Part shown: positions 6,528-62,157 of the stretch, piece by piece
Position numbering within the stretch: position 1 is the stretch's first letter
Layout: each line of letters begins with the position of its first letter
Assembly (NCBI GenBank): GCA_035517655.1
Contig: DATIYJ010000029.1
Span: forward strand, 18,230 to 82,229
Reading direction: 5' to 3'
Source: Nitrospiria bacterium
GTDB lineage: Bacteria; Nitrospirota; Nitrospiria; JACQBZ01
Length of the DNA: 64,000 nucleotides
Notes under the pieces: generated by a model
Database searches by the model: none
What the model saw: the letters and a program-made list of their open reading frames with translations, nothing else
Told to the model about the DNA's origin: nothing
Made by a program: the position numbers and the translations under genes

Positions 6528-8177
6528 ATGCCGTTCACCTTCATCGAGATCGAGGAGCGGAAAACGTGGAGGATCTGGCTCTTCATTCTCGTTCTCCTTC
6601 TTCTCTACTTGGCCGTCCTGGCGACACTCACGGTCGCGGTGGCCCAGACGGTCTTTATACCGTATCACGCCTTGCTCAACCCGCGGTTCCTGCTGCTCCT
6701 TGTCGCGACTTCGCTGACGGCCGCCGTCACCCATTTCTGTTTTTCAACTTTGGGCGTGGTCGATTTTATCCGGGACAATCTCGGGGCGCTCGAACCCGAT
6801 CCCGAGGACGGCATCCACAAACGCCTGCTGAACATTCTGCGGGAGATCGAGGTGGTCACCGGAAACCGGAGAAAGATCGAGGGCCGGGTGATCCCGACGC
6901 TCGCAATGAACGCCCTCGCCGTCGTGAACCTCCGGGGAAACGCCACGATCGCGGTCACCGAAGGCCTGCTTTCAAGACTCACGCGGCCGCAGTTGGAGGC
7001 GGTCATGGCCCACGAGGCCTATCACATCATCTCGGGAGATTGTCTGGAGACAACGGTGGCCGCCAGCCTTTTCGGACTGCCGTCCTCCGCGTTCGAAAAG
7101 TTTTCGAGAACCATGACCGCATCGGCCCGTCTGTCTCCGGTGCTTCTCTTGGTCTGGTGTCTGCTGAAGCTCAGCCAGATTTTCAATATGCTCATCTCCC
7201 GGGAACGGGAGTATCGGGCCGACGCCGGCGCGGTGCGTATGACGCGCAACCCGTTGGCGCTGGCCGAAGCCCTTCAATTATTGTCGCGGAATTGGAGAGG
7301 CACCGGTTTCATCGGCAACGGCTTCGAGATGCTCTGTATCGTGAATCCCGTGGCGAAGGCCCTGGACGAGACGGAAGGCCGGTGGGCCGATCTGATGTCG
7401 ACCCATCCCCCGATTCAGAAACGGATCGATATTCTATTGAAAATGGCCCATGCGGAGCTGTCGGAACAGATCGTAAAAGCGGCGTCCGCAGCCGGCGCCG
7501 CTACCGCCAAGCCTTCCGAATCGGTCTTCCACGCCTTGGATCCCCAACACCAATGGCAGGGGCCTTTTACACTGCCGGAACTTTACGCCCTGCCCTGGAT
7601 TTCCCCGCTCACGTGGATCAACGACGGAGGCCCGGCGATCGAGCGGGCTTGGAAGATGCCGCAGATCGATCCGGCGATTTTCACAAAACGTCTGGCCGAG
7701 GAGGCGTCGCCGGTCAGCCGGTTCCTCTGCCCTTCCTGCCATCAGCCTTTGCTGGAAATCACCTATGAACGGACGCAGATCGATCAATGCCACTTCTGCG
7801 GCGGGGCCTTGGTTGAAAGCGACCGGATACCGCGGATTATCGCACGGACCGAAAACCCGGCCACGGACCGGATCCAGTCGTTGTCAAAAGCGGCGATGCA
7901 GGAAAGCCAGCTCCGAGGAATCGGACGGCAAATGGAGCAAAGCGACCGGAAAGCGATCCCGCTCCGCAATTGCCCCAAATGCAGCCATCCGATGATGAGG
8001 ACGTTTTACACGCTCGCCTATCCGGTCCAGATCGACCGGTGCAGCTCCTGCAGTGTAACCTGGTTCGATCCGGACGAGCTCGAGATGCTCCAATGCATGA
8101 TCGCCAACAAAATGGCTGCGGAGCCGCTGGGTTCCACTCCCGACGCCGAAAATCCCGAAAAAGTTTTAACCCCATGA
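6528..8177 (+). CDS. M48-family Zn metallopeptidase (HtpX-like) fused to two C-terminal zinc-ribbon (zf-TFIIB-like) domains
   Basis: N-terminal TM helices. HEAYHI (HExxH) and downstream EREYRAD Glu ligand. Two CPxC...IDxCxxCxGxWFDxxEL zinc-ribbon units at the C-terminus. ATG is 4 nt after the lemA stop (known LemA/M48 pairing). Confidence 0.8.
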   Translation: MPFTFIEIEERKTWRIWLFILVLLLLYLAVLATLTVAVAQTVFIPYHALLNPRFLLLLVATSLTAAVTHFCFSTLGVVDFIRDNLGALEPDPEDGIHKRLLNILREIEVVTGNRRKIEGRVIPTLAMNALAVVNLRGNATIAVTEGLLSRLTRPQLEAVMAHEAYHIISGDCLETTVAASLFGLPSSAFEKFSRTMTASARLSPVLLLVWCLLKLSQIFNMLISREREYRADAGAVRMTRNPLALAEALQLLSRNWRGTGFIGNGFEMLCIVNPVAKALDETEGRWADLMSTHPPIQKRIDILLKMAHAELSEQIVKAASAAGAATAKPSESVFHALDPQHQWQGPFTLPELYALPWISPLTWINDGGPAIERAWKMPQIDPAIFTKRLAEEASPVSRFLCPSCHQPLLEITYERTQIDQCHFCGGALVESDRIPRIIARTENPATDRIQSLSKAAMQESQLRGIGRQMEQSDRKAIPLRNCPKCSHPMMRTFYTLAYPVQIDRCSSCSVTWFDPDELEMLQCMIANKMAAEPLGSTPDAENPEKVLTP

Positions 8178-8255
8178 TACGCCGGGATCCTCAACATAAA
8201 AAGATCGGTGCTGTTTCACTGCAATTGATGCAATCCGGTTATTTCAGCACAAGTC

Positions 8256-9383
8256 TCACTGCACCGTCACGGTGGCGCCGGAGCAGAAGGTGTTGTTCCC
8301 TTCGTCCGTCTCGACCACGGCATTGAGCGAATCGGCCATGGCACAGACATAGTAAGTGCCCACCGGTACCGTGCTTGGTATCGATAGACTCGTGGTGGCC
8401 GAACTGCTCGCCCCTGCTGCTAATAATGTCACCGATCGGATCGTCGAGATCACTACATCATCCGAATCGCCATAAATATTATTCACCGATAGCCTAAAGC
8501 CGATCCGGAACGCGGTGCTGGCGATCAACCCCTGGTTTTGGACCGTGTTGCCCACCGAAAGCGTTGACCTGCGATTGACCGTGGCCGCATTCGGCGTCAC
8601 GGCCGTCATCTCCAGATCCGCACGCGTGACCTGGACCGGCGTGGCCGTGCAATTCGCGTTGTTGTTCTCATTCCCTTCCGCGACCGTGTTGCCGCTGTCG
8701 GCCATCGCGCAGACGTAGTAAAACCCAGGAGGCGTGCTGGACGGAACAGTCAGCGTGTTTGTAGCTGTGCTGCTCGCCCCAATGGCCAAGGCTGTTAAGG
8801 ATCGAGTCAACGCCATCGCAATGTCGTCTGCCCCGCTATACGTCGCATCCGATGAGAAATGGAAAGCGATCGTAAAAGCCCCGGCTTTTGATCCTCCCTG
8901 GTTCTTCACCGTGTTGGAAAGCGTGAAAGTCTTGCCCGGCGCCACCGCCGTCGCCGTGGCAGAGACCGCGGTCATAGTCAGATCCGCGGCCGGCACAGTA
9001 ACCGTGCCTGAGCCGCATAACGTGTTATTGGTCTCGTCCGTCTCGACCACGGCGTTCACGGGATTTCCACCATTGTCGCTCAAATCTTTCACAAAGGGTG
9101 CCTGTGCCAAGGCCCACCTTTGGAGCTGAGTGACCTGAATGCTCAGGGAACCGGTGCACCGTGTATTGTTGGTCTCGTCGGATTCGGCTACGCTATTCGC
9201 GTTGTCAGCCTTCGCGCACACAACGTAGCTTCCCGGAGGAGTTGTGGAAGGAAAAGTGAGCGTCGTCGTAGCCGTGCTGCTCGCCCCCGCCGCTAATGAA
9301 CCGACTGATCGGGTGGCCGTGAAAGCAATATCATCGGCATCCCCATAGACCGTGTTGGTCGAAAGATGAAACGCCACAACCAA
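8256..9383 (-). pseudogene. CARDB-repeat cell-surface protein, apparently 5'-truncated (3.5 CARDB repeats, no signal peptide, TTG pseudo-start)
   Basis: Repeats of NQG..A..F.IAFH.S.D..Y...DD....T.RS...LAAGASS.AT..L..PS..P.G.YYVCA.AD..N.V.E..E.NN. The reading frame stays open upstream to about 9445, matching repeat consensus (ARSVSNTVTNQ) with no ATG. It then runs into unrelated AT-rich sequence with a stop near 9531-9533. Confidence 0.55.
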
Positions 9384-9445
9384 CGATCCAGTCGAGGTGG
9401 TTTCCTGATTTGTAACTGTGTTTGAGACAGAACGTGCCGGGCAAT

Positions 9446-10140
9446 CATTCGGAGATTCTCTTTTTGAGGAAATTGATGAGGAGTTCTCCCGATATGAGTT
9501 AAAAATCTCTCTTTTAGTTGCTGGATTCGATCAAAATGGACATGGTCACATTTTTAGTATAGAAAGTTGCGAACCGATGTTTATATTTTACAATATGGAA
9601 AGCATCCAATTAAATTGCATGAAAAAGATATTGATGATGATGTTCTTGCTAAAATCTGCGGAGTACTTCATCCTGAATAATTTGCCTCACCACAGATAGA
9701 TAAGCTAAATAAAATACCTGAATTAAGTCGGTTTCCTAAGATAGTAAAAAAACAAAAAAAGAAATGACCAGTTTCAGATTTATTTATTTTTCTTTTTCCA
9801 CCGTGCCATTGCTGCTTTTTTTGCAATTTGTTTCCGCTTAAAAGAAGGGAGAGATGCGGCCCGTGCTTTTCCACCCTTTAGCCCTCCGAGTCGTCCAAGT
9901 GCTACTGCCGCGGGATTTTTCGGTTTCTCTGACCCTTCTGTAGCTGCTTTGAGGATTTCGAAGCAGTTACGTTTTCATCTTTGCTTGATCGCTTAGGCAT
10001 GATGTGATTACGCCATGCCATATTGTAGAAATCAATAGGCCAGAAAATCAAACTGACCCACTACCAAAGTGGGGGTTTTAGCTACGGGTTTGATAAAGTG
10101 GAGGGAGCAATTTTTTATAGCGCGCTTCCATCAGGAGAGG
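9446..10140. other. Low-GC (~35-40%) non-coding insert, compositionally foreign. Probable remnant of a horizontally acquired or mobile segment.
   Basis: Abrupt GC drop against ~62% flanks. Poly-A/T runs. The only ORF (9418-9699) is low complexity. The insert abuts the truncated CARDB gene on one side and the HepT/MNT pair on the other. Confidence 0.5.
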
Positions 10141-10143
10141 CTG

Positions 10144-10575
10144 CTACTCGGGCGCGTTCTTTTTGACAAACGCGTTAATGGCCTGTAGATATTTTGGGAT
10201 GTCTCTTAGGGCAAACTGAAGTCCTTCATAAACCTTCCGTTCATCAATCTCATCATATTCATGTACGATTCGGTTCCGTAGCCCGGATGCCCCCGCCAGT
10301 GTTCGCGCAAAGATGGGTTCCAGAACGCCGAGCCGTCCCAGTTCTACAAAGGATTCAAAATAGTCTTTGGGCGGCGGATGTCCGAGTTCAGTGACAATAT
10401 GGTAATTGATATCAATCATCCGGCCTATTATGCGTTCAAGGTAACGCTCGGCCAGGACTTCGTAAGTGGGATTTTAAAGATAAGCATCCAATGAAAATTC
10501 GGCGTAAGGCTCCAGGGCCTTGAGGTCTTTGCCGATGAGGCTTATCTTTCGGATCACCAGGGTGCGGTCGATCAC
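10144..10575 (-). pseudogene. hepT: HepT-family (DUF86, HEPN RxxxxHEY) toxin gene interrupted by an in-frame TAA
   Basis: C-terminal part is ORF 10144-10419 with GLRNRIVHEYDEID (HEPN Rx4HxY). Hand translation shows the same frame continuing upstream as VIDRTLVIRKISLIGKDLKALEPYAEFSLDAYL-TAA(10474-10476)-NPTYEVLAERYLERIIGRMIDINYH. A GTG start at 10575 overlaps the MNT stop (GTGA). Confidence 0.55.
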
Positions 10576-10991
10576 GAAGCCATCCCGGTTCTCTTTAGAA
10601 GTTGCTCAACGTATTGCCGTTCCATCTCAAAATAGCGGCGGTGGTCTTGATACCGTTTGAAGGTATAGATTTTAAGTTCCATCAGCCTACCAGGCGCGCC
10701 GTAAAGGAGGCGGCAGTTTTCGGTGATCTTTTTCAGAATGAGAGGATCGGCATGGTTGATGATACTGAGGTCAACGGGCTGATCGGGGAAAATTTTCTGG
10801 AAACCATGGACGAGCTCGGAATATTCCGGACTGGTGGGGCTGCGTTCTTTCCGGAACAGCACCGCGATATCAAGGTCGCTTCCGGCATGCCGCTTGCCGG
10901 TCAGGGCCGATCCAAAAAGCAGAATCAAACTGATCCCATGTCGATCGGCAATCCGGTTTAATTTTTTTCTTTCCTCGACGGCGAGTTCCAC
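10572..10991 (-). CDS. mntA: MNT-type nucleotidyltransferase antitoxin (partner of HepT)
   Basis: 139 aa. LFGSALTGKRHAGSDLDIAV is the GSx9-13DxD minimal nucleotidyltransferase motif. Immediately upstream of and overlapping hepT. Confidence 0.8.
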   Translation of the reverse strand: MELAVEERKKLNRIADRHGISLILLFGSALTGKRHAGSDLDIAVLFRKERSPTSPEYSELVHGFQKIFPDQPVDLSIINHADPLILKKITENCRLLYGAPGRLMELKIYTFKRYQDHRRYFEMERQYVEQLLKRTGMAS

Positions 10992-11104
10992 GATCGGGAT
11001 CCTTACGGGTTGTTTAAACCCATGGTCGGATTATACCGGCATCGAGACGGTCCGTCAAGGAGATGTATGCGTTTGCCTTCATTCAACCCGTTGGGCTGAC
11101 TTAT

Positions 11105-11130
11105 TGAAGAACCCCGCCCTCACAGGCGGG
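11105..11130 (-). terminator. GC-rich hairpin downstream of hydrolase gene (possible terminator)
   Basis: ccccgccctcacaggcgggg forms a 7-bp perfect stem CCCCGCC/GGCGGGG. On the minus strand it is followed by ttcttcaataag (weak T-tract). Confidence 0.3.
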
Positions 11131-11177
11131 GATTACGCTCGCTACACGGATCAAACAGGAAGGGAAGAAACGATGAC

Positions 11178-11834
11178 TCAAGCCGACTTCGAACTGAGAT
11201 GCCGCGCGAACCATCGGGCCGCAAGGCGGGCCACTTCCTCCAGAGCGCCGGGTTCTTCAAACAGATGGGTCGCCCCCGGAATGACGGCCAACTCCTTCTC
11301 CCCCTTGAGCCGATCATAGGCCTGCTGATTGAGTTCGATGACGACGTCGTCATCGCCCCCGACGATCAGCAGGGTCGGCGTCTTCACGCGATCGAGAACG
11401 GGCCCGGCCAGATCGGGACGCCCTCCCCGCGAGACAACCGCCCGCACCGTCGGGCCCAGAGCGGCAGCCGCCTCGAGCGCCGCGGCGGCGCCCGTGCTGG
11501 CCCCAAAATAGCCGACCTTCAACTTCTTTGTTTCCGACCGCCCCGTCAGCCATCGCGTGGCCGCGGTCAAGCGATCCGTCAGCAGAGAGATGTCGAAGCG
11601 CGTTTCATAGACGGCGTCTTCCGGCTCGGTGAGAAGATCGAACAACAGGGTTCCGATGCCGTTTTCGCGCAATACCCTCGCGACATAATTATTCCGGGGA
11701 CTGCGGCGGCTGCTGCCGCTGCCGTGCGCGAACAGCACCACGCCCTGCGCCCCGGCGGGAATCGCAAGCATTCCCTCCAGGTTCACGGCATCCGCTCGGA
11801 TGCGCACAAGATGCTCGGGACTTTCCTTCGCCAT
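11178..11834 (-). CDS. Alpha/beta hydrolase, dienelactone hydrolase family
   Basis: 218 aa. VVLFAHGSGSS, GxSxG-like YFGASTGAAAAL, and LLIVGGDDD..IPGATHLF point to a DLH-like fold. Confidence 0.75.
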   Translation of the reverse strand: MAKESPEHLVRIRADAVNLEGMLAIPAGAQGVVLFAHGSGSSRRSPRNNYVARVLRENGIGTLLFDLLTEPEDAVYETRFDISLLTDRLTAATRWLTGRSETKKLKVGYFGASTGAAAALEAAAALGPTVRAVVSRGGRPDLAGPVLDRVKTPTLLIVGGDDDVVIELNQQAYDRLKGEKELAVIPGATHLFEEPGALEEVARLAARWFARHLSSKSA

Positions 11835-11959
11835 GGCCTGTCTCCTCTTTTAGGGGGCTTGCTGATGGCCATCTACGCATCGCAAGGATTTTATGTTATC
11901 ATTGATTGCGTCAGGAATGCAAAAGGGCCGGAAGGCGGTCTGCAACGGAGGCGATCGTC

Positions 11960-12823
11960 ATGAAGGATCGCGGTGTGTTCGAAACAAGCGAACGGGATTT
12001 TGACAAGCAGGTAATTGAGCAGTCGAAAACCGCGCCGGTCCTTGTCGATTTCTGGGCCCCCTGGTGCGGCCCCTGCCGGATCCTCGGGCCGATATTGGAA
12101 GAAGCGGTCGAGGAACGTCAAGGCGAGGTTCGTCTGGCCAAGGTCAACAGCGACGAGAATCCGAATCTCGCCGCGCGCTACGGCATCCAAAGCATCCCCA
12201 CCGTTCTCGCGTTCATCAACGGCGATCCCGTGAACGGATTCATGGGGGCATTGCCAAAGGAAGCGATCCGCCAATTCATTGAAGAACTGATTCCCAAGGA
12301 GACGGATAAACTCGCCCGGAGAGCCGGAGAACTCGAACTGAAACAACGATGGGACGAAGCCCTGCAGTGCTATCGGGAGGCGCTCCAATCGGACCCGAAC
12401 CATCCGGCTTCGCTGATCGGGCGGCTGGGGATCCTGATCCGCCTCGAGCGATGGGCGGAGGCGGAGGAGGCCTATCAACGCATGCCGGGGACCGTCCAGA
12501 TGGATGACGAGGTCCAGCGTCTGAAAACCCGCTTGGATCTCGGCCGCGCGCTATCCGTCGGCCCGTCGATTCCGGATCTCCAGAAAAAATTGCAGGCCGA
12601 GCCGGCCGATCTCGAAGCCCGCGATCAACTCGCAGCGCTCTATGCCGCGAAGCGACAGTATCGCGAAGCCCTGGAGGAATGGCTGACGATCGTCAAGCGG
12701 GACCGGCGCTTCAAGGACGACGGCGCGCGAAAAAGGATGCTCCAGATTTTTGAACTGATCGATCCCCGCAGCCCGCTGGCCGAGGAATACCGCGAGAAAC
12801 TCGCCCGCGCGATCTATCGGTGA
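11960..12823 (+). CDS. Thioredoxin-domain protein with C-terminal TPR region (YbbN/CnoX-like co-chaperone)
   Basis: ATG at 11960 after a ggagg RBS. WAPWCGPCR thioredoxin active site. TPR-like helical C-terminal half. Confidence 0.8.
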   Translation: MKDRGVFETSERDFDKQVIEQSKTAPVLVDFWAPWCGPCRILGPILEEAVEERQGEVRLAKVNSDENPNLAARYGIQSIPTVLAFINGDPVNGFMGALPKEAIRQFIEELIPKETDKLARRAGELELKQRWDEALQCYREALQSDPNHPASLIGRLGILIRLERWAEAEEAYQRMPGTVQMDDEVQRLKTRLDLGRALSVGPSIPDLQKKLQAEPADLEARDQLAALYAAKRQYREALEEWLTIVKRDRRFKDDGARKRMLQIFELIDPRSPLAEEYREKLARAIYR

Positions 12824-12853: not shown

Positions 12854-15800
12854 GTGGTGACCTCAGGCAGAGTTGAGAGAATTCACGCATCGGTGCCGGG
12901 GAGGGCTCGATTTCATGTCCCGGCGCTCCGGCGGTCAAACGCGCTCAAGCGCTGGCTGGAAAGCGAACTCATCGGATCGTCCGGAATCGAGCGCGCTTCC
13001 GCCAGTCCCGCAACGGGCAACGTCCTCGTTTATTACAATCCCCCCGTGGGTCCGCAGAACGTCGCGGACCACATCCGCGACATTCTCGAAAGGTTCCCGG
13101 CGGCCGCGCGTTCAATGCCGGTTTTGGATCCCGCAACGGGCTCGTCCCCCGCCCCGCCGGTTCCGGCGTCGCGGCGTCCCGAATCCCCGGCTGAAACGTG
13201 GCATCGGCTTTCCGCGAGCGCGGCGCTGTCGGCGCTTGAGGCGAATCCGGCGGGCCTGGCCGCCGACGAAATCGCCGAACGGCTCAGGCGGCACGGGAGG
13301 AACATCCTTCCCGGAGCGGAGCCCGCCTCGGCGCTCGGCACCTTTGTCGATCAGTTCAGATCGCTGCCCGCCGCACTGCTGGTGGGCGGAGCGGCGCTTT
13401 CCTTTCTGACCGCGGGCGCGGCCGAGGCCTTTGTGATCCTGGGGGCCGTGGGGCTCAACGCCGTGATCGGATTCATGATCGAGCGTCGGGCCGAGACGAC
13501 GATCCGATCGCTCAGGAGCCTCGTGCGTCCCCCCGCGTGGGTCATCCGCGACGGCGAAATCCGATCGATTGACGCGGAGCAGGTGGTCCCCGGCGACATC
13601 CTCGTTCTGAAGCGCGGGGCGCTGGTGCCGGCGGACGGGCGGATCATCGACGCGAACCGGCTGCGCCTGAACGAGGCGGCCCTGACGGGCGAGAGCATGC
13701 CGGTTCCCAAACAAGCGGAGGTTCTCCTAGGCCCCGAAACGCCCGTCACCGAGCGCTTAAACATGGTGTACCGGGGAACGTGGGTGAGCGGCGGCAGCGG
13801 TCTGGCGGTGGCGGCCACAACGGGAAAATCCACCGAGCTGGGGCGCATCCACGGGTTGGTCCTCCAGGCGGAGGAACAGGCCACTCCGCTGGAGCGCACG
13901 CTGGATCGCTTGGCCCGTCAGCTGGTCTTGATCAGCGGGGTGGTCTGCGGCTTCTCACTTCTCACCGGCCTTCTGCGAGGGTACGGACTGTTGGAGATAC
14001 TCCAGGCCTCCCTCTCGATGGCGGTCGCGGCCATTCCCGAGGGTTTGCCGACGATCACGACCACGACCCTGGCCCTGGGCATTCAGAACATGCGCCGCCA
14101 CCGCGTGATGATTCACCGCCTGGAAGCGGTCGAGGCGCTCGGTTCCATTCAGATCATCTGCTTTGATAAAACCGGCACGATCACGCTGAACCAAGTCACG
14201 GCGCTCGCGATTCACTCGGGGATGCGACGGATCGATGTGGTCCGCGGAAGCCTCACGGCCCGGGGAGCCCCGATCGATCCGCTCGAATGCGAGGAGGTGC
14301 TCCGATTGATGCAGATCGGCGCCCTCTGCAGCGATACCGACGTTCGCCGCGAAGGCGGTGAATGGGTTGTGAACGGTCCGCCGATGGACAACGCCTTGGT
14401 GAACCTGGCCCTCCGTGCGGGCGTGGATGTCCTTGAACTCCGCAGGAGCCATCCCGTTGTGGCGGTGCGACGGGGCTCCGCGCATCGGAAATACATGATG
14501 AGCGTCCACGTCAGCGGGGAAGCGGGATCCGACGGAGCCGGCCTGATCACCGTGAAGGGCAGACCGTCGGCGATCCTGACCCGGTGCGGCTGGCAGATCA
14601 AAGCGGGCAAGAGACAGCCCCTCGACGAGGAGGACCGGCGTCAGATCGGGATCGAAGCGGATCGCTTTTCGGCCGACGGCATGCGCATCGTGGGTCTCGC
14701 CTACCGGGAAGTCGATTCTCCAAGCCATCTTCCCGAAAAGGATCCGTCCGACCTCACGTGGGTTGGAGCGGTCGGTTTCGCCGACCCCATCCGGGACGGC
14801 GCCAAGGAGCTCATCAACGCCTTTCATGAGGCCGGCATCGCCACGGTCATGATCACGGGCGATCGGAGCGCCGCCGCTTATTCCATCGCCAAAGAAATCG
14901 GCCTCGCCGGCCGGGATCAGATCGAGATCCTGGACTCCACGCACCTTCGCAATCTTGAGCCGGAGGTATTAAGCGGGCTCACCGAGCGGGTGCATGTGTT
15001 CGCCCGACTCAGCCCGACACAAAAGCGGGAGATCGTTCTGGCGCTGCAGCGCAGGGGAAAAGTGGTGGCCATGACGGGGGACGGAATCAACGACGCGCCG
15101 GCGCTGAAGGCCGCCGACATCGGCATTGCCATGGGAAAAAGCGGCACCGCCCTGGCCCGCGAGGTCGCGGACGTCGTCCTGGAGGACGATCGACTTGAAT
15201 CGATGATCATCGCCGTGCGGCAGGGACGCACCCTCTACGACAACATCCGCAAATCCGCCCGCTATCTCCTGGCCACGACGGTCGGGGAAATCATCGTGAG
15301 GTTCGCGGGAATCGCCCTGAATTTCGAACACCCCGCGCCGTTTCTGTGGGTCAATCCGATTTTCCCGGCGATGGCTTTGGCGCTGGAACCGTCGGAGCCC
15401 GACGTGTTGAAGCGTCCGCCCCGACCCTCGCAGCAGCCGATCATCGGGCCGGACGATCTAAAGAGAACCGCCTTCGAAGGGGGAATGATGTCGCTGGGGG
15501 TGCTGGGCGCCTACGGTTATGGATTGGCCCGCTACGGCCCCGGTGCTCAGGCCGGAACACTCGCCTTCCTGGGACTGTCTACGGCCCAACTCCTCCATGC
15601 GTTGAGCTGTCGTTCCGATCACAGCCGATTGTTCCTGACGGGCGTCGGGGGAGGACACCCACCCCTTCCCCCGAACCCTTATTTATGGCTCTCGATCGGC
15701 GGGACCCTGCTCCTGCAGGGTATCGGGCTGCTCATTCCAGGCGTGCGGAGTTTGCTCGGCTTCACCCCCATTTCGCTTCTTGACGGAGCGGTGATCGGCG

Positions 15801-57597: not shown

Positions 57598-58338
57598 TTA
57601 GACGGACATCAGATTGCGACGGGCCACACCCACCAGCCCGACCAAACCCGTGCCGAACAACACCATGGCGGCCGGGATCGGCACCGGAGCAATCGCATTC
57701 CCGGAGATCGTAAGCAAGCCGCCCGCCGTCAACGTCGCATGTCCCAGCTGGGCGATGGCATCGGAAGAATAATCCGCCGAAATAATGCCCAAAGTGCCCC
57801 CGAGCCCCGTCTGCATGGAGACCGGGAAACTGCCGGCCAGCGTGCCGCTCGTACCGAAATTGCTTGTGAACGAATTGGGGTCCGAAGCGGGAAGAAGCTT
57901 CGAGGAAAGTCCGTCTCCTGAACTGAGCGCGGCCCAAACGGCGTCCGTGTTCCAGGCGTTCTGCGGAGCCACTTGCGACAACTGGGCCGCCGTGTAGGCG
58001 CTGGCGTCCTGGCTCGACCCGGCCACAAGATAGGTCGGATCACCCGTGCTCGGATTATAGTAAAAACCGATCAAGGCCCAAGCCGGAGAATTCGTCCCTT
58101 GTATCGCGGACATGGTGGAAGAATCGATGGTAAAGTTCGTCGACGCTCCCGGTGTGAGCAACGGAGTGGCCGCGCCGATATTGTCGATGAACTCGGTGTT
58201 ATTGCCGAAGACGGCCAAGACCAGGTCGCCGTTATTGATATCAACGGCGAGGGCTTTTCCGTTAAAGCCCGCAACGAACATGACAGCCAAGGTAAAAATC
58301 CCGAGGACTGTTTGTTTCAACTTCGTTTTGTAATTCAT
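57598..58338 (-). CDS. PEP-CTERM-type (VPIP variant) exosortase cargo protein
   Basis: Signal MNYKTKLKQTVLGIFTLAVMFVAG. C-terminus ...IAPVPIPAAMVLFGTGLVGLVGVARRNLMSV. RBS aaggag. Confidence 0.75.
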   Translation of the reverse strand: MNYKTKLKQTVLGIFTLAVMFVAGFNGKALAVDINNGDLVLAVFGNNTEFIDNIGAATPLLTPGASTNFTIDSSTMSAIQGTNSPAWALIGFYYNPSTGDPTYLVAGSSQDASAYTAAQLSQVAPQNAWNTDAVWAALSSGDGLSSKLLPASDPNSFTSNFGTSGTLAGSFPVSMQTGLGGTLGIISADYSSDAIAQLGHATLTAGGLLTISGNAIAPVPIPAAMVLFGTGLVGLVGVARRNLMSV

Positions 58339-58387
58339 TGTCTTCTCCTTATAATAAGGATTACGGTTACGTACCCGGCTCGTCCGA

Positions 58388-58513
58388 AGACGCCCCCCGG
58401 TCGCCTTCCCTTCCGAGCCGCTTCTTCCTCCGGCTGAGCTTCCTTGCTCAACCGGGGCGATTATCTCATCGCAGGCATTAAAAACCGATCAAGATGAAAT
58501 AAAATGAAGTAAA
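58388..58513 (-). promoter_or_regulatory. Structured GGA-rich 5' leader/promoter of cargo gene 57598-58338 (copy 1 of duplicated ~125 bp element)
   Basis: Minus-strand reading: TGAGATAAT (extended -10-like) ... CGCCCCGG-ttgagcaaggaagctcAGCCGgaggaagaagCGGCTcggaagggaaggcga-CCGGGGGGCG, then ~60 nt, RBS and ATG. GGA motifs lie in the loop of the inner hairpin. Confidence 0.5.
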
Positions 58514-58627
58514 GTTTTTATGATTTAATGTTTCCTCCTTTCCGTTTGATTCATGGTTGAGGGTTGCGCAATCGGCACGGTCCGGCGCGGCCGACTTTAC
58601 TGAAACCTTCCGCCGCTTGATAAGGCG

Positions 58628-58753
58628 TCCCCCCGGCCGCCCTCCCTTCCGAGCCGCTTCTTCCTACGGCTGAGCTTCCTTGCTCAACCTGGGCGATTAT
58701 CTCACCGCACGCATTAAGAACGGATCAAGATGAAATAAAATGAAGTAAAACTG
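58628..58753 (-). repeat. Copy 2 of the ~125 bp leader element (~90% identical to 58388-58513), followed by a decayed start (ATG at 58554, 9-codon mini-ORF MNQTERRKH)
   Basis: Direct repeat seen by eye. Downstream ATGAATCAAACGGAA resembles the true cargo start ATGAATTACAAAACGAAG but has no RBS and stops after 9 codons. Confidence 0.6.
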
Positions 58754-59119
58754 TTCCCCGTTTTCTTTGATCAAATATCAGATGAAGCCCGTCTCTCCAT
58801 CGACCCCAATCCGCATCGCGGGGGAACGACTCGGACCCGGCGTCGAAGGAGAGACCGGATGACACGCTTCGCGCGGAAGCGAACAAAGTCTATGACGAAC
58901 AAATTAAAGCCCGGTCAAGATCCGGTTAAATCGGATTCAATTTCCCGGAGGGCCGTAGATGGGAGGAGGACGGAGGATACGGGAGCTTTCAAAAAAGGTC
59001 GACGTCGATCGTTCTCAAATATTACTCTTTTGTAACACGCTCTTGAGATCAAGGTAACAAGACCCTTCTATGCTGTCGGACAAATTACAGGCGATATTCA
59101 ATTCAGAACCGGACACCCC

Positions 59120-59827
59120 ATGCCGAAAAAAGTTCTGATCATCGAAGACGATCCGGACACTTCCAGCCTCGTCGCACATTACCTGAAGCAGGAAGGATAC
59201 TCTGTCGGCACGGCTTCCGATGGAGTGATGGGGCTTAAACAGGTCCGGAAAAACTCTCCGGATCTGTTGATTCTGGACATCATCCTTCCTCACATGGACG
59301 GTTTCGAGGTTTGCAAAAAACTGCGCCAAGACGCGGCCACATCGCGATTGCCCATTTTGATGCTCACCGCCCTGGGCGAGGAATCGGACAAGGTCGTCGG
59401 GCTGGAATTGGGAACGGACGACTATGTCACCAAACCCTTCAGCCCCAAAGAACTCGTGGCCCGCGTCAAGGGACTCTTGCGGCGCTACGAGCACAGGGAG
59501 ATCGGGACCTTGTCGTCCTTCCACAAATACGGGCCCCTCATCTTGGACGAGGCGCGCCAATCGGTCAAGGTAAACGGCCAAGGGGTTCGTCTCACGGCCA
59601 AGGAGTTCGCTCTCTTGGCGCAGCTTTTAAAAAGAAAGGGAAGGGTGCTGACTCGTCAAATGCTTCTCGAAACGGTCTGGGGGTATGAATCTCAAGTGAC
59701 CACCCGAACCATCGAGGTCCATATCTACGGACTCCGACAAAAGATCCCATTCCTGACCAAAGCCATTCAGACCGTCGTGTCTTCCGGATACAAGCTCTTG
59801 GATGAAGGAAATCAGGGAACGGTCTGA
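59120..59827 (+). CDS. OmpR/PhoB-family response regulator (receiver plus winged-helix)
   Basis: 235 aa. KVLIIEDDPD...DLLILDIILPHMDGFEV (receiver Asp). C-terminal trans_reg_C (…TRTIEVHIYGLRQKI…). No histidine kinase adjacent in the window. Confidence 0.85.
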   Translation: MPKKVLIIEDDPDTSSLVAHYLKQEGYSVGTASDGVMGLKQVRKNSPDLLILDIILPHMDGFEVCKKLRQDAATSRLPILMLTALGEESDKVVGLELGTDDYVTKPFSPKELVARVKGLLRRYEHREIGTLSSFHKYGPLILDEARQSVKVNGQGVRLTAKEFALLAQLLKRKGRVLTRQMLLETVWGYESQVTTRTIEVHIYGLRQKIPFLTKAIQTVVSSGYKLLDEGNQGTV

Positions 59828-62076: not shown

Positions 62077-62084
62077 AAAAATTT

Positions 62085-62157
62085 AGCGGCGGAGGGATTT
62101 GAACCCCCGGCCAAGAGATTATGATTCTCCTGCTCTACCACTGAGCTACGCCGCCGT
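62085..62157 (-). tRNA. tRNA with CAT anticodon (tRNA-Met elongator, or tRNA-Ile2 read after lysidine modification)
   Basis: Reverse complement reads GGCGGCG-TAGCTCAGTGGTAGAGC-AGGAGAATCATAATCTCTT-GGCC-GGGGGTTCAAATCCCTC-CGCCGCT. Cloverleaf with 7-bp acceptor, D-arm, anticodon loop AT-CAT-AA and T-arm GGTTCAAATCC. CCA is not encoded. Confidence 0.8.

Follow-up and report, generated by a model that had tools for sequence, protein, structure and literature searches.

A small, probably acquired mosaic of decaying genes with a disrupted HepT/MntA cassette in a variable interval of a Nitrospiria chromosome

HepT/MntA type VII toxin–antitoxin systems pair a HEPN toxin with an adenylyltransferase antitoxin, and their motifs, RX4HXY in the toxin (the RNase site plus the AMPylated Tyr) and GSX10DXD in the antitoxin, are defined in PMC7641770. 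In such systems the toxin arrests growth, and MntA neutralises it by oligo-AMPylation. Degenerate or orphan chromosomal toxin–antitoxin loci are modules with an inactivated toxin that remain when addiction has been lost. The locus described here, part of a 64,000-nucleotide stretch (the window) of Nitrospiria bacterium contig DATIYJ010000029.1, resembles these loci in that the toxin was hit first, the antitoxin is intact and the module lies in a compositionally foreign islet beside other pseudogenes. Of its five genes four are broken and only that for the antitoxin is intact, and the islet lies between a conserved M48 peptidase gene and a dienelactone-hydrolase-like gene (DLH). Its features are as follows:

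8256–9437, minus strand: remnant of a CARDB-repeat gene (Pfam CARDB, PF07705, 139.6 bits in three stretches; frame and translation)
9057–9128, minus strand: atypical 24-codon stretch in the CARDB remnant, where most of one repeat is missing
9433–9767, plus strand: remnant of a proteasome-beta-like (Ntn-hydrolase) pseudogene of a family of ~290 aa (representative search, tblastn and alignment)
9780–10000, minus strand: pseudogene, frameshifted, for a small protein (~73 aa) rich in lysine and arginine (database clusters, tblastn)
10132–11080, minus strand: self-contained HepT/MntA type VII toxin–antitoxin cassette of 0.95 kb, a block common to relatives
10144–10575, minus strand: hepT toxin pseudogene, 143 codons (Pfam HepT-like, NCBIfam HepT_toxin)
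10572–10991, minus strand: intact mntA antitoxin (adenylyltransferase) gene, 139 aa (NCBIfam MntA_antitoxin, Pfam)
11030–11058, minus strand: predicted near-consensus sigma-70-type promoter, TTGACG-17-TATAAT (11 of 12 consensus matches)

We consider it probable that about 1.65 kb of this locus is a mosaic of horizontally acquired, decaying DNA in a variable M48–DLH interval, made up of three unrelated pieces at different stages of decay and adjoined by a CARDB gene that has lost its 5′ end.

The segment from about 9435 to 11080 is compositionally foreign and AT-richer. Among 317 sliding 800-nt windows, 9401–10200 was the top outlier of the 64 kb in both GC content (40%, z = −5.0) and tetranucleotide distance (z = 7.4), so that the low-GC islet proposed in a preliminary description of this DNA is real. 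That description had GC falling from ~62% to ~35–40%; the fall is borne out (39.1% over 9446–10140), but the starting level is lower, the CARDB remnant having 57.6% GC and the flanks 59%. GC is 33.2% over 9441–9726 and 28.6% over 9727–9782, reaches 45–46% over 9783–10143 and 49–51% in HepT/MntA, and is back up to 65% in the DLH gene. The islet had been drawn as extending to 11178 (GC 46.0% over 9384–11178), but the foreign DNA ends on the right at about 11080. Nor is the AT-rich part an anonymous insert: it consists of the proteasome-beta-like and the frameshifted small basic-protein pseudogenes, and the islet as a whole has been put together from at least three independent pieces.

The source is metagenomic, and one assembly’s contig (L002/L006) stops at ~9105, within the CARDB repeats, as might happen if AT-rich DNA of another organism had been misjoined in assembly or binning and the stop and frameshift were sequencing errors. 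Such an artefact is extremely improbable. Six separate metagenome assemblies from three sources (ENA, Logan and JGI) were 99.8–100% identical over the region and had the hepT TAA, a 1-nt deletion in the small basic-protein gene and all junctions in common, and four independent contigs (L001, L003, L004 and L007) ran unbroken over both junctions. Because the lesions are identical in six independent assemblies, they are not sequencing or assembly artefacts, and they are fixed in the population sampled. Ten SNP positions were found among the six assemblies within 8000–12000, all inside the pseudogenised stretch 8995–10425 and none in M48, the intact CARDB repeats, MntA or DLH; four linked SNPs lie at 8995–9104, and the clustering represents about four independent haplotype blocks, not ten independent events.

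CARDB surface proteins are found in Nitrospirota and other soil bacteria, and the C-terminal repeats encoded here share 82% identity and the C-terminal ending TVTVQ with their counterparts in the nearest relatives. Two C-terminal repeats of the remnant are intact; of a third the final ~25 residues are left, and a further repeat (ARSVSNTVTNQ...) is N-truncated. As the preliminary description had read it, the gene continues in frame to the islet boundary: on the minus strand no stop interrupts the frame until about 9530, and repeat similarity ends at ARSVSNTVTNQ, about 9437. No ATG was found upstream in the open frame, where the first possible start is a TTG at 9383, within a repeat; the residues upstream (SNPATKREIFNSYRENSSSISSKRESPND) are hydrophilic, and the remnant has no signal peptide or export signal and no N-terminal domains. 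By contrast, P0039, a full-length relative, combines a signal peptide (MRTLKIISLFGWLMMGVFAVNTGWA) with N-terminal domains and three CARDB repeats, three intact repeats are present in P0006 and P0007, and the frame of L021 runs on upstream into a further repeat. The 5′ end with its ATG and signal peptide has thus gone, again as first described.

The window copy differs from proteins such as P0039 also in carrying an internal scar. The 24 codons at 9057–9128 (QLQRWALAQAPFVKDLSDNGGNPV) appear as a 47–48-residue gap or insertion when aligned to P0006/P0007, with no CARDB sequence in the other two frames, and probably mark an in-frame internal deletion or recombination. Against L020 and L021, the last two repeats have dN/dS values of 0.11–0.14, which shows past purifying selection on this 3′ part; as these repeats are also unblemished, a shortened product might conceivably still be made from an internal start.

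AT-rich upstream regions are common, and several promoter-like hexamer pairs lie in 9556–9616, so the AT-rich stretch could in principle be the native promoter or regulatory region of a complete CARDB gene. We regard this as very improbable, given an ORF that starts mid-repeat without ATG or signal peptide, relatives whose genes go on upstream with more CARDB and, in the full-length case, a signal peptide, and the recognisable remnants of two unrelated protein-coding genes within the stretch itself.

The first of these, abutting CARDB, resembles stand-alone bacterial proteasome-beta-like Ntn hydrolases (PF00227-related). In a representative search of 1.84 billion proteins it matched P0242 (E = 1.5e-4) and P0243 (E = 5.5e-4), and tblastn aligned it, in two HSPs whose frames differ, to residues 112–156 and 218–272 of P0243; the fragments match the middle and C-terminal parts of the family, including the motif LLVAGFDxxGxGHIF. 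Only about 40% of the gene is left, in two frames: the first ~110–125 codons are missing, ~61 internal codons have gone with a frame change at ~9567, there is a premature in-frame TAA at 9678–9680, and the remnant stops at ~9767, near the natural C-terminus of the family. With a degenerate DNA pattern for LL[VL][AV]GFDxxGxGHIF we retrieved 24 loci of this family from metagenomes, 40–54% identical to the window fragments, and two members passed Pfam Proteasome PF00227 (29.1 and 32.3 bits; cutoff 22.4). Family members start with MT[VC]C[IV]AALCD, whose N-terminal Thr, missing from the window remnant, would be the expected Ntn nucleophile, judging from the proteasome-like match. Intact members have a GC content of 44–54%, compared with 33% in the remnant; the donor may have been AT-rich, or decay may have been AT-biased. 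A PDB sequence search with P0243 gave non-significant matches only. The family is unnamed and has no described function; elsewhere it is found near TIR and STAND genes.

The CARDB and proteasome-like remnants are both 5′-truncated and lie head-to-head, abutting within 5 nt at 9433–9437. One deletion that removed both 5′ ends, together with the promoter region between two divergent genes, is the most likely origin of this junction. The preliminary description was right that the CARDB 5′ end had been lost, but attributed the loss to insertion, and a single AT-rich foreign fragment inserted at ~9440 into an intact CARDB gene would indeed account for the sharp drop in GC, which coincides exactly with the end of CARDB similarity, and for the absence of the CARDB 5′ part from the whole 64-kb window. 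We nevertheless find a clean insertion rather unlikely. The CARDB 5′ half does not resume on the far side of the islet, where DLH comes directly, and the islet, which combines independent units, has no target-site duplication or terminal inverted repeats and encodes no transposase or integrase. Moreover, the foreign gene that meets CARDB here has also lost its 5′ end and points away from CARDB, so that insertion alone would need extra deletions; a deletion fits better.

Searches for mobile elements were negative throughout. No direct or inverted repeats bracket 9435 and 11080, the only repeats found being those of CARDB itself, and an IS or transposon was rejected because there are no bracketing terminal inverted repeats or target-site duplication. 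No transposase, integrase or recombinase gene was present among the ORFs at 8100–11900, and no tRNA adjoins the islet (the only one in the 64-kb window is at 62084–62155). The preliminary description had proposed a search of IS, phage and plasmid databases; the phage and plasmid collections gave no blastn or tblastn match (DNA in distant mode; protein P0243), and a scan of viral contigs for the proteasome-like family pattern gave 0 matches. An RNA gene or riboswitch was also rejected: Rfam, applied to the whole window at the gathering threshold and to 9300–11300 at E ≤ 1, gave only a sub-threshold chance match in AT-rich sequence.

The second AT-rich pseudogene has the translation MPKRSSKDENVTA/FEILKAATE...KNPAAVALGRLGGLKGGKARAASL...ARWKKKNK and is broken by a 1-nt deletion at ~9962. 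Two tblastn HSPs, in frames −2 and −1, cover it, and at least 7,994 database clusters of 60–107-aa proteins match; cluster sequences read a continuous NVTAFEIL at the frame change of the window. No Pfam domain was found in these clusters, and the AT-rich ORFs gave nothing significant against Pfam, NCBIfam and PHROGs, the small protein having a weak match to PHROG 2384. These small basic proteins form a very large unannotated family.

The third piece, the HepT/MntA cassette, spans the promoter region to 12 nt beyond the HepT stop. Over exactly 10132–11080 it has 84.6% ungapped nucleotide identity to L023, and it is 80.5% identical to L022 over 10439–11060. Its neighbouring genes differ in L022, L023, L024 and L052, and the cassette is a separate unit, found in different contexts among relatives. 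The block conserved with L022 and L023 also takes in the predicted promoter, which lies 39 nt upstream of mntA. As in Class I PF01934/PF01909 pairs of the Shewanella oneidensis SO_3166/SO_3165 type (PMC7641770), the antitoxin gene comes first in a predicted operon and overlaps the toxin gene, here in the GTGA at 10572–10575, where mntA stops and hepT starts with GTG.

Both genes pass NCBIfam equivalog cutoffs, as in other HepT/MntA systems. MntA (about 139 aa) scores 69.3 bits against MntA_antitoxin (cutoff 60), matches Pfam Polbeta and NTP_transf_2, and has the GSX10DXD motif as G27-S28-x10-D39-L-D41, in which D39 and D41 have the same numbers as the residues that were mutated in the S. oneidensis protein (PMC7641770). 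In PADLOC, MntA alone was matched, by the candidate PDC-S09 models, with no match for the other pieces. HepT (about 143 codons) scores 95.5 bits against HepT_toxin (cutoff 60) and 78.4 bits against Pfam HepT-like (HepT/DUF86-type HEPN, PF01934; cutoff 23.5), over profile positions 5–120 of 120 and across the stop, and its conceptual translation has the RX4HXY motif (R100-NRIV-H105-E-Y107).

Unlike in working HepT/MntA systems, the toxin ORF is interrupted at position 34, by a single in-frame TAA (10474–10476), and therefore the pair cannot work as a toxin–antitoxin system as encoded; the preliminary description had likewise noted a MNT/HepT pair with a disrupted toxin. L022 and L023 have AAG (Lys) as codon 34, and L023 and L052 encode an intact HepT of 143 aa. 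As there is a single lesion, and as dN/dS against L023 is equal for HepT (0.174) and MntA (0.170), the toxin was inactivated recently, after past constraint like that on MntA. The decaying, acquired character first ascribed to the segment is therefore retained, but its description as old suits only the proteasome-like remnant. In L022, a close relative, the toxin was lost independently (HepT is truncated) and MntA kept, in line with degenerate toxin–antitoxin loci, of which the window locus is a typical example with nothing distinctive.

We also considered that the module may still be functional, with selection keeping MntA either in an anti-addiction role, as an orphan antitoxin, or because it acts on a new substrate, and/or with a 91-aa C-terminal HepT ORF serving as a mini-toxin. 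MntA is intact, with its catalytic motif, no SNPs and a near-consensus predicted promoter, and L022 has likewise lost the toxin and kept MntA; gene callers predict the 91-aa ORF (ATG 10419), which retains RX4HXY and matches Pfam HepT-like. We think this quite unlikely, however. As inactivation is recent, MntA should still be intact whether or not selection acts on it. The 91-aa ORF is missing the first 52 residues, part of the HEPN domain (the Pfam and NCBIfam matches begin at residues 10–18), no obvious Shine–Dalgarno sequence precedes ATG 10419, and the closest relatives with data have HepT at its full length of 143 aa. Within this assessment, MntA, with its intact predicted promoter and no decay, may still be in use. 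A broader proposal strikes us as similarly doubtful: that mntA is a domesticated orphan adenylyltransferase under selection, for example for anti-addiction immunity against incoming HepT/MntA cassettes, and that M48–DLH is a lineage-specific landing pad for conflict-system cargo, the proteasome-like family included. If domestication were true, toxin loss would be recurring independently in the cassette lineage, in the window and in L022.

We favour the decay of acquired DNA in the M48–DLH interval, a variable spot in this Nitrospirota lineage. In L016, the closest GTDB relative, it contains M48, an unrelated lipoprotein gene and a DLH 3′ remnant, with neither CARDB nor islet. The preliminary description had suggested looking for an intact CARDB gene in orthologous loci. 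L016 has no CARDB at the site, L020 and L021, sought as orthologous CARDB loci, are too short, being cut at their 5′ ends, and P0013, whose contig ends within the CARDB gene, is not syntenic; no outgroup was found to preserve the ancestral form of the interval.

The order of events, and a lack of current function, we infer as follows. Accessory or toxin–antitoxin cargo would have arrived in a permissive interval; once the toxin was inactivated, the addiction pressure to keep the module would have gone, and the segment would then have eroded through point mutations and deletion bias. Such deletion bias is typical of bacterial genomes. The stages of decay would run from the heavily eroded proteasome-beta-like gene to the small basic-protein gene with one frameshift and HepT with one nonsense codon.

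The locus is thus an unremarkable example of how acquired DNA decays at a variable site of the chromosome. Verified at population level, it shows a small islet in successive stages of decay, with the toxin inactivated first and the antitoxin still intact. For annotation, four ORF calls in 8256–10575 are pseudogenes or remnants (CARDB, a 93-aa ORF, a 33-aa ORF and the 91-aa HepT piece), and beyond correct annotation the locus is of little consequence. Two by-products may be of interest, the unannotated small basic-protein family and the unnamed proteasome-like family near TIR/STAND genes.

The DNA between the M48 peptidase and dienelactone-hydrolase-like (DLH) genes had been described as an AT-rich insert truncating a CARDB gene, plus a degenerate HepT/MNT module. 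This was largely right, but calls for correction in four respects: what the AT-rich DNA is, how the islet is made up, how the junction arose (probably by deletion) and how recently the toxin died. The islet is a mosaic, with its toxin–antitoxin (TA) cassette a separate ~0.95-kb unit, and the rest of the locus consists of what is left of three genes, for a CARDB surface protein, a proteasome-like accessory protein and a small basic protein, all now pseudogenes. Nothing here is unusual, since TA modules that lose the toxin first are common in small islets of foreign composition.

Features of the locus
8256 to ~9437, minus strand: CARDB gene remnant; Pfam CARDB in three stretches, 139.6 bits in total; GC 57.6%
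9433–9767, plus strand: proteasome-like remnant; HMMER and tblastn matches to database proteins P0242/P0243
9780–10000, minus strand: small basic-protein pseudogene; family match and frameshift; 'KNPAAVALGRLGGLKGGKARAASL...ARWKKKNK'
10144–10575, minus strand: hepT; RX4HXY (R100...H105-x-Y107); HepT equivalog model 95.5 bits; TAA at codon 34; GC 48.8%
10572–10991, minus strand: mntA, intact; GSX10DXD (G27-S28...D39-x-D41); NCBIfam MntA equivalog 69.3 bits (cutoff 60); GC 51.0%

Among 317 sliding 800-nt windows, 9401–10200 was the most extreme in both GC (z = −5.0) and tetranucleotide composition (z = 7.4), and the two lowest GC values at 1-kb resolution fell within 9001–11000. The reported composition shift at 9446–10140 (39.1% GC) was thus confirmed, against surroundings of ~58–59% rather than 62%. 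The very AT-rich part spans only ~340 nt: GC is 59% in the left flank, 33.2% at 9441–9726, 28.6% at 9727–9782, 45–46% at 9783–10143 and 64.8% in DLH. Further compositional outliers were 13001–14000, in the 5' portion of the gene for the P-type ATPase (high GC, ~68–69%), and 58201–59200 (lower GC, ~51–52%).

The hepT gene begins with a GTG that shares bases with the stop codon of mntA, and its TAA beside an intact mntA matches the disrupted toxin of the earlier reading. RX4HXY and GSX10DXD follow the motif definitions in PMC7641770. Apart from the broken toxin frame, the cassette is a textbook match to type VII Class I HepT/MntA pairs; as encoded, it is a degenerate Class I member. HepT is intact (143 aa) in two related loci, L023 (MntA 83% identity) and L052 (71%), while in L024 (71%) the contig ends inside hepT. 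In L022 (77%), hepT is cut independently after ~codon 47, with unrelated genes downstream of the cut, a separate toxin loss with mntA kept; two small ORFs there (78 and 77 aa, without Pfam hit; L022:3152–3822) look like another inserted two-gene module. Similarity to L023 covers exactly 11080–10132 (84.6% nucleotide identity, ungapped), reaching 89 nt ahead of mntA and 12 nt beyond the hepT stop, and the genes beside the cassette differ in every relative examined, so the cassette is an independent unit. A near-consensus promoter (TTGACG-17-TATAAT, 11058–11030) lies inside it.

The acquired DNA had been called old and decaying, but the toxin died recently. Both L022 and L023 have AAG (Lys) at codon 34 of hepT, where the TAA is the only lesion of the window copy. 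Against L023, dN/dS of the window genes is 0.174 for hepT and 0.170 for mntA (dS ~0.5), so that the toxin was constrained like the antitoxin until recently.

Rather than an anonymous insert, the AT-rich part is two identifiable pseudogenes lying tail to tail, proteasome-like and small basic, as judged from HMMER and tblastn matches to two protein families. When 1.84 billion representative proteins were scanned exhaustively with HMMER, the first had, at E ≤ 0.001 and besides the ORF itself, only P0242 (E = 1.5e-4) and P0243 (E = 5.5e-4) as relatives. By tblastn, two colinear HSPs in differing frames align 9433–9567 with P0243 residues 112–156 (44% identity) and 9567–9725 with residues 218–272 (36%). 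A degenerate DNA pattern for 'LL[VL][AV]GFDxxGxGHIF' recovered 24 more family genes from metagenomes, encoding ~280–300 aa and in most cases starting 'MT[VC]C[IV]AALCD'. Two of these genes encode proteins that passed the Pfam Proteasome cutoff of 22.4 (29.1 and 32.3 bits), which identifies the family as a stand-alone proteasome-beta-like Ntn hydrolase. The window copy lacks roughly the first 110–125 codons and, with a frame change, ~61 internal codons; it carries an in-frame TAA (9678–9680) and ends at 9767, near the family's natural C-terminus.

This unnamed ~290-aa family, with the signature 'MT[VC]C[IV]AALCD...LLVAGFDxxGxGHIF', occurs in soil metagenomes (L027–L051; for example, L046:7562–8428, L034:8637–9473 and 9619–10617, and L051:2950–3816), and its genes are AT-richer than their own contigs. 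Among the genes beside them are one with a TIR domain (L051), one for an nSTAND1-WD40 NTPase, accompanied by a second paralogue (L034), and one for an IS1595 transposase (L031); the family looks like conflict- or defence-island cargo.

The small basic protein is a member of a very large family (60–107 aa; at least 7994 clusters at E ≤ 10, those listed reaching ~1e-13 to 1e-16), which has no Pfam or NCBIfam model and no Pfam domain in its clusters. Members read 'MPKRS.K..NVTAFEILKAATE...', whereas the window changes frame between 'MPKRSSKDENVTA' and 'FEILKAATE...' owing to a single-base deletion, GCTTTCGAA to GCTTCGAA. The near-invariant core of the family is 'KNPAAVALGRLGGLKGGKARA..LS...R..IAKKAA..RW' (relatives P0121–P0240, L025:5001–5240 and L026:497–721); one relative adjoins a PIN/PhdYeFM TA pair and another an HTH gene.

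That the CARDB gene lacks its 5' end and signal peptide was upheld. Its frame is open upstream to ~9530 without an ATG, repeat similarity ends at 'ARSVSNTVTNQ' (~9437), and the earliest possible start, TTG 9383, is mid-repeat with hydrophilic residues upstream; P0039, a relative encoded in full on a long contig, has the architecture to be expected, with a signal peptide and N-terminal domains ahead of three CARDB repeats. The nearest non-self relatives, P0006 and P0007, share 64–66% identity over the whole alignment, rising to 82% in the last two repeats, with three intact repeats and the same 'TVTVQ' end; in L021, the frame runs upstream into another repeat before the contig ends. At 9057–9128 lies an internal scar, a 24-codon non-repeat stretch after which a repeat is represented by its final ~25 residues alone. 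The last two repeats are lesion-free with dN/dS of 0.11–0.14 against L020/L021, which implies selection for most of the gene's history and a truncation that is not ancient.

Minus-strand CARDB similarity ends at ~9437 and plus-strand proteasome-like similarity begins at 9433, the two genes pointing away from each other, both without 5' parts. One deletion across the 5' ends and common upstream region of two divergent genes would give this geometry in a single step. Insertion of a foreign fragment into CARDB, as first proposed, would also remove the 5' end but would require additional deletions; the CARDB 5' half was not found beyond the islet. Neither inverted repeats nor target duplications mark the borders, and no recombinase gene or tRNA lies close to them. 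We therefore prefer a deletion as the likely origin, although no outgroup that preserves the ancestral state turned up. To the right of the islet, a 7-bp GC-rich hairpin (11112–11131, CCCCGCC-6 nt-GGCGGGG) just downstream of the minus-strand DLH stop, followed by TTCTTCAAT, is likely the DLH terminator and marks native sequence a little beyond the border; its T-run is too short to have been picked up by the terminator scan.

The flanking genes (HemY, LemA, M48 peptidase with zinc ribbon, DLH, thioredoxin-TPR and P-type ATPase) have their nearest relatives in Nitrospirota metagenome-assembled genomes. Among the GTDB representatives searched, which do not include the window's own species, the best was L016, a groundwater 'Nitrospirae bacterium' (protein identity: M48 68%, HemY 82%, LemA 85%). 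There, M48 is followed by an unrelated 468-aa lipoprotein gene and a 42-codon 3' remnant of DLH (L016:11908–13472), without CARDB or islet. The interval has thus been rearranged in both lineages and is a variable, rearrangement-prone spot in which CARDB is not conserved.

Exact-protein look-ups recovered the locus in six metagenome assemblies from three sources (ENA, Logan and JGI), gap-free and 99.8–100% identical to 8000–12000, all six with the hepT TAA and the 1-nt deletion of the small gene. The ten variable positions all fall within 8995–10425, spanning the CARDB scar region, proteasome-like remnant, small pseudogene and hepT, with none in M48, the intact CARDB repeats, mntA or DLH. This clustering agrees with relaxed constraint on the dead stretch, though the SNPs amount to no more than about four linked blocks. 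Four of them (8995, 9014, 9035 and 9104), inside the CARDB scar region, occur together in two assemblies (L004 and L007) and may have arisen together by gene conversion between CARDB repeats, as one tract, instead of by four independent mutations.
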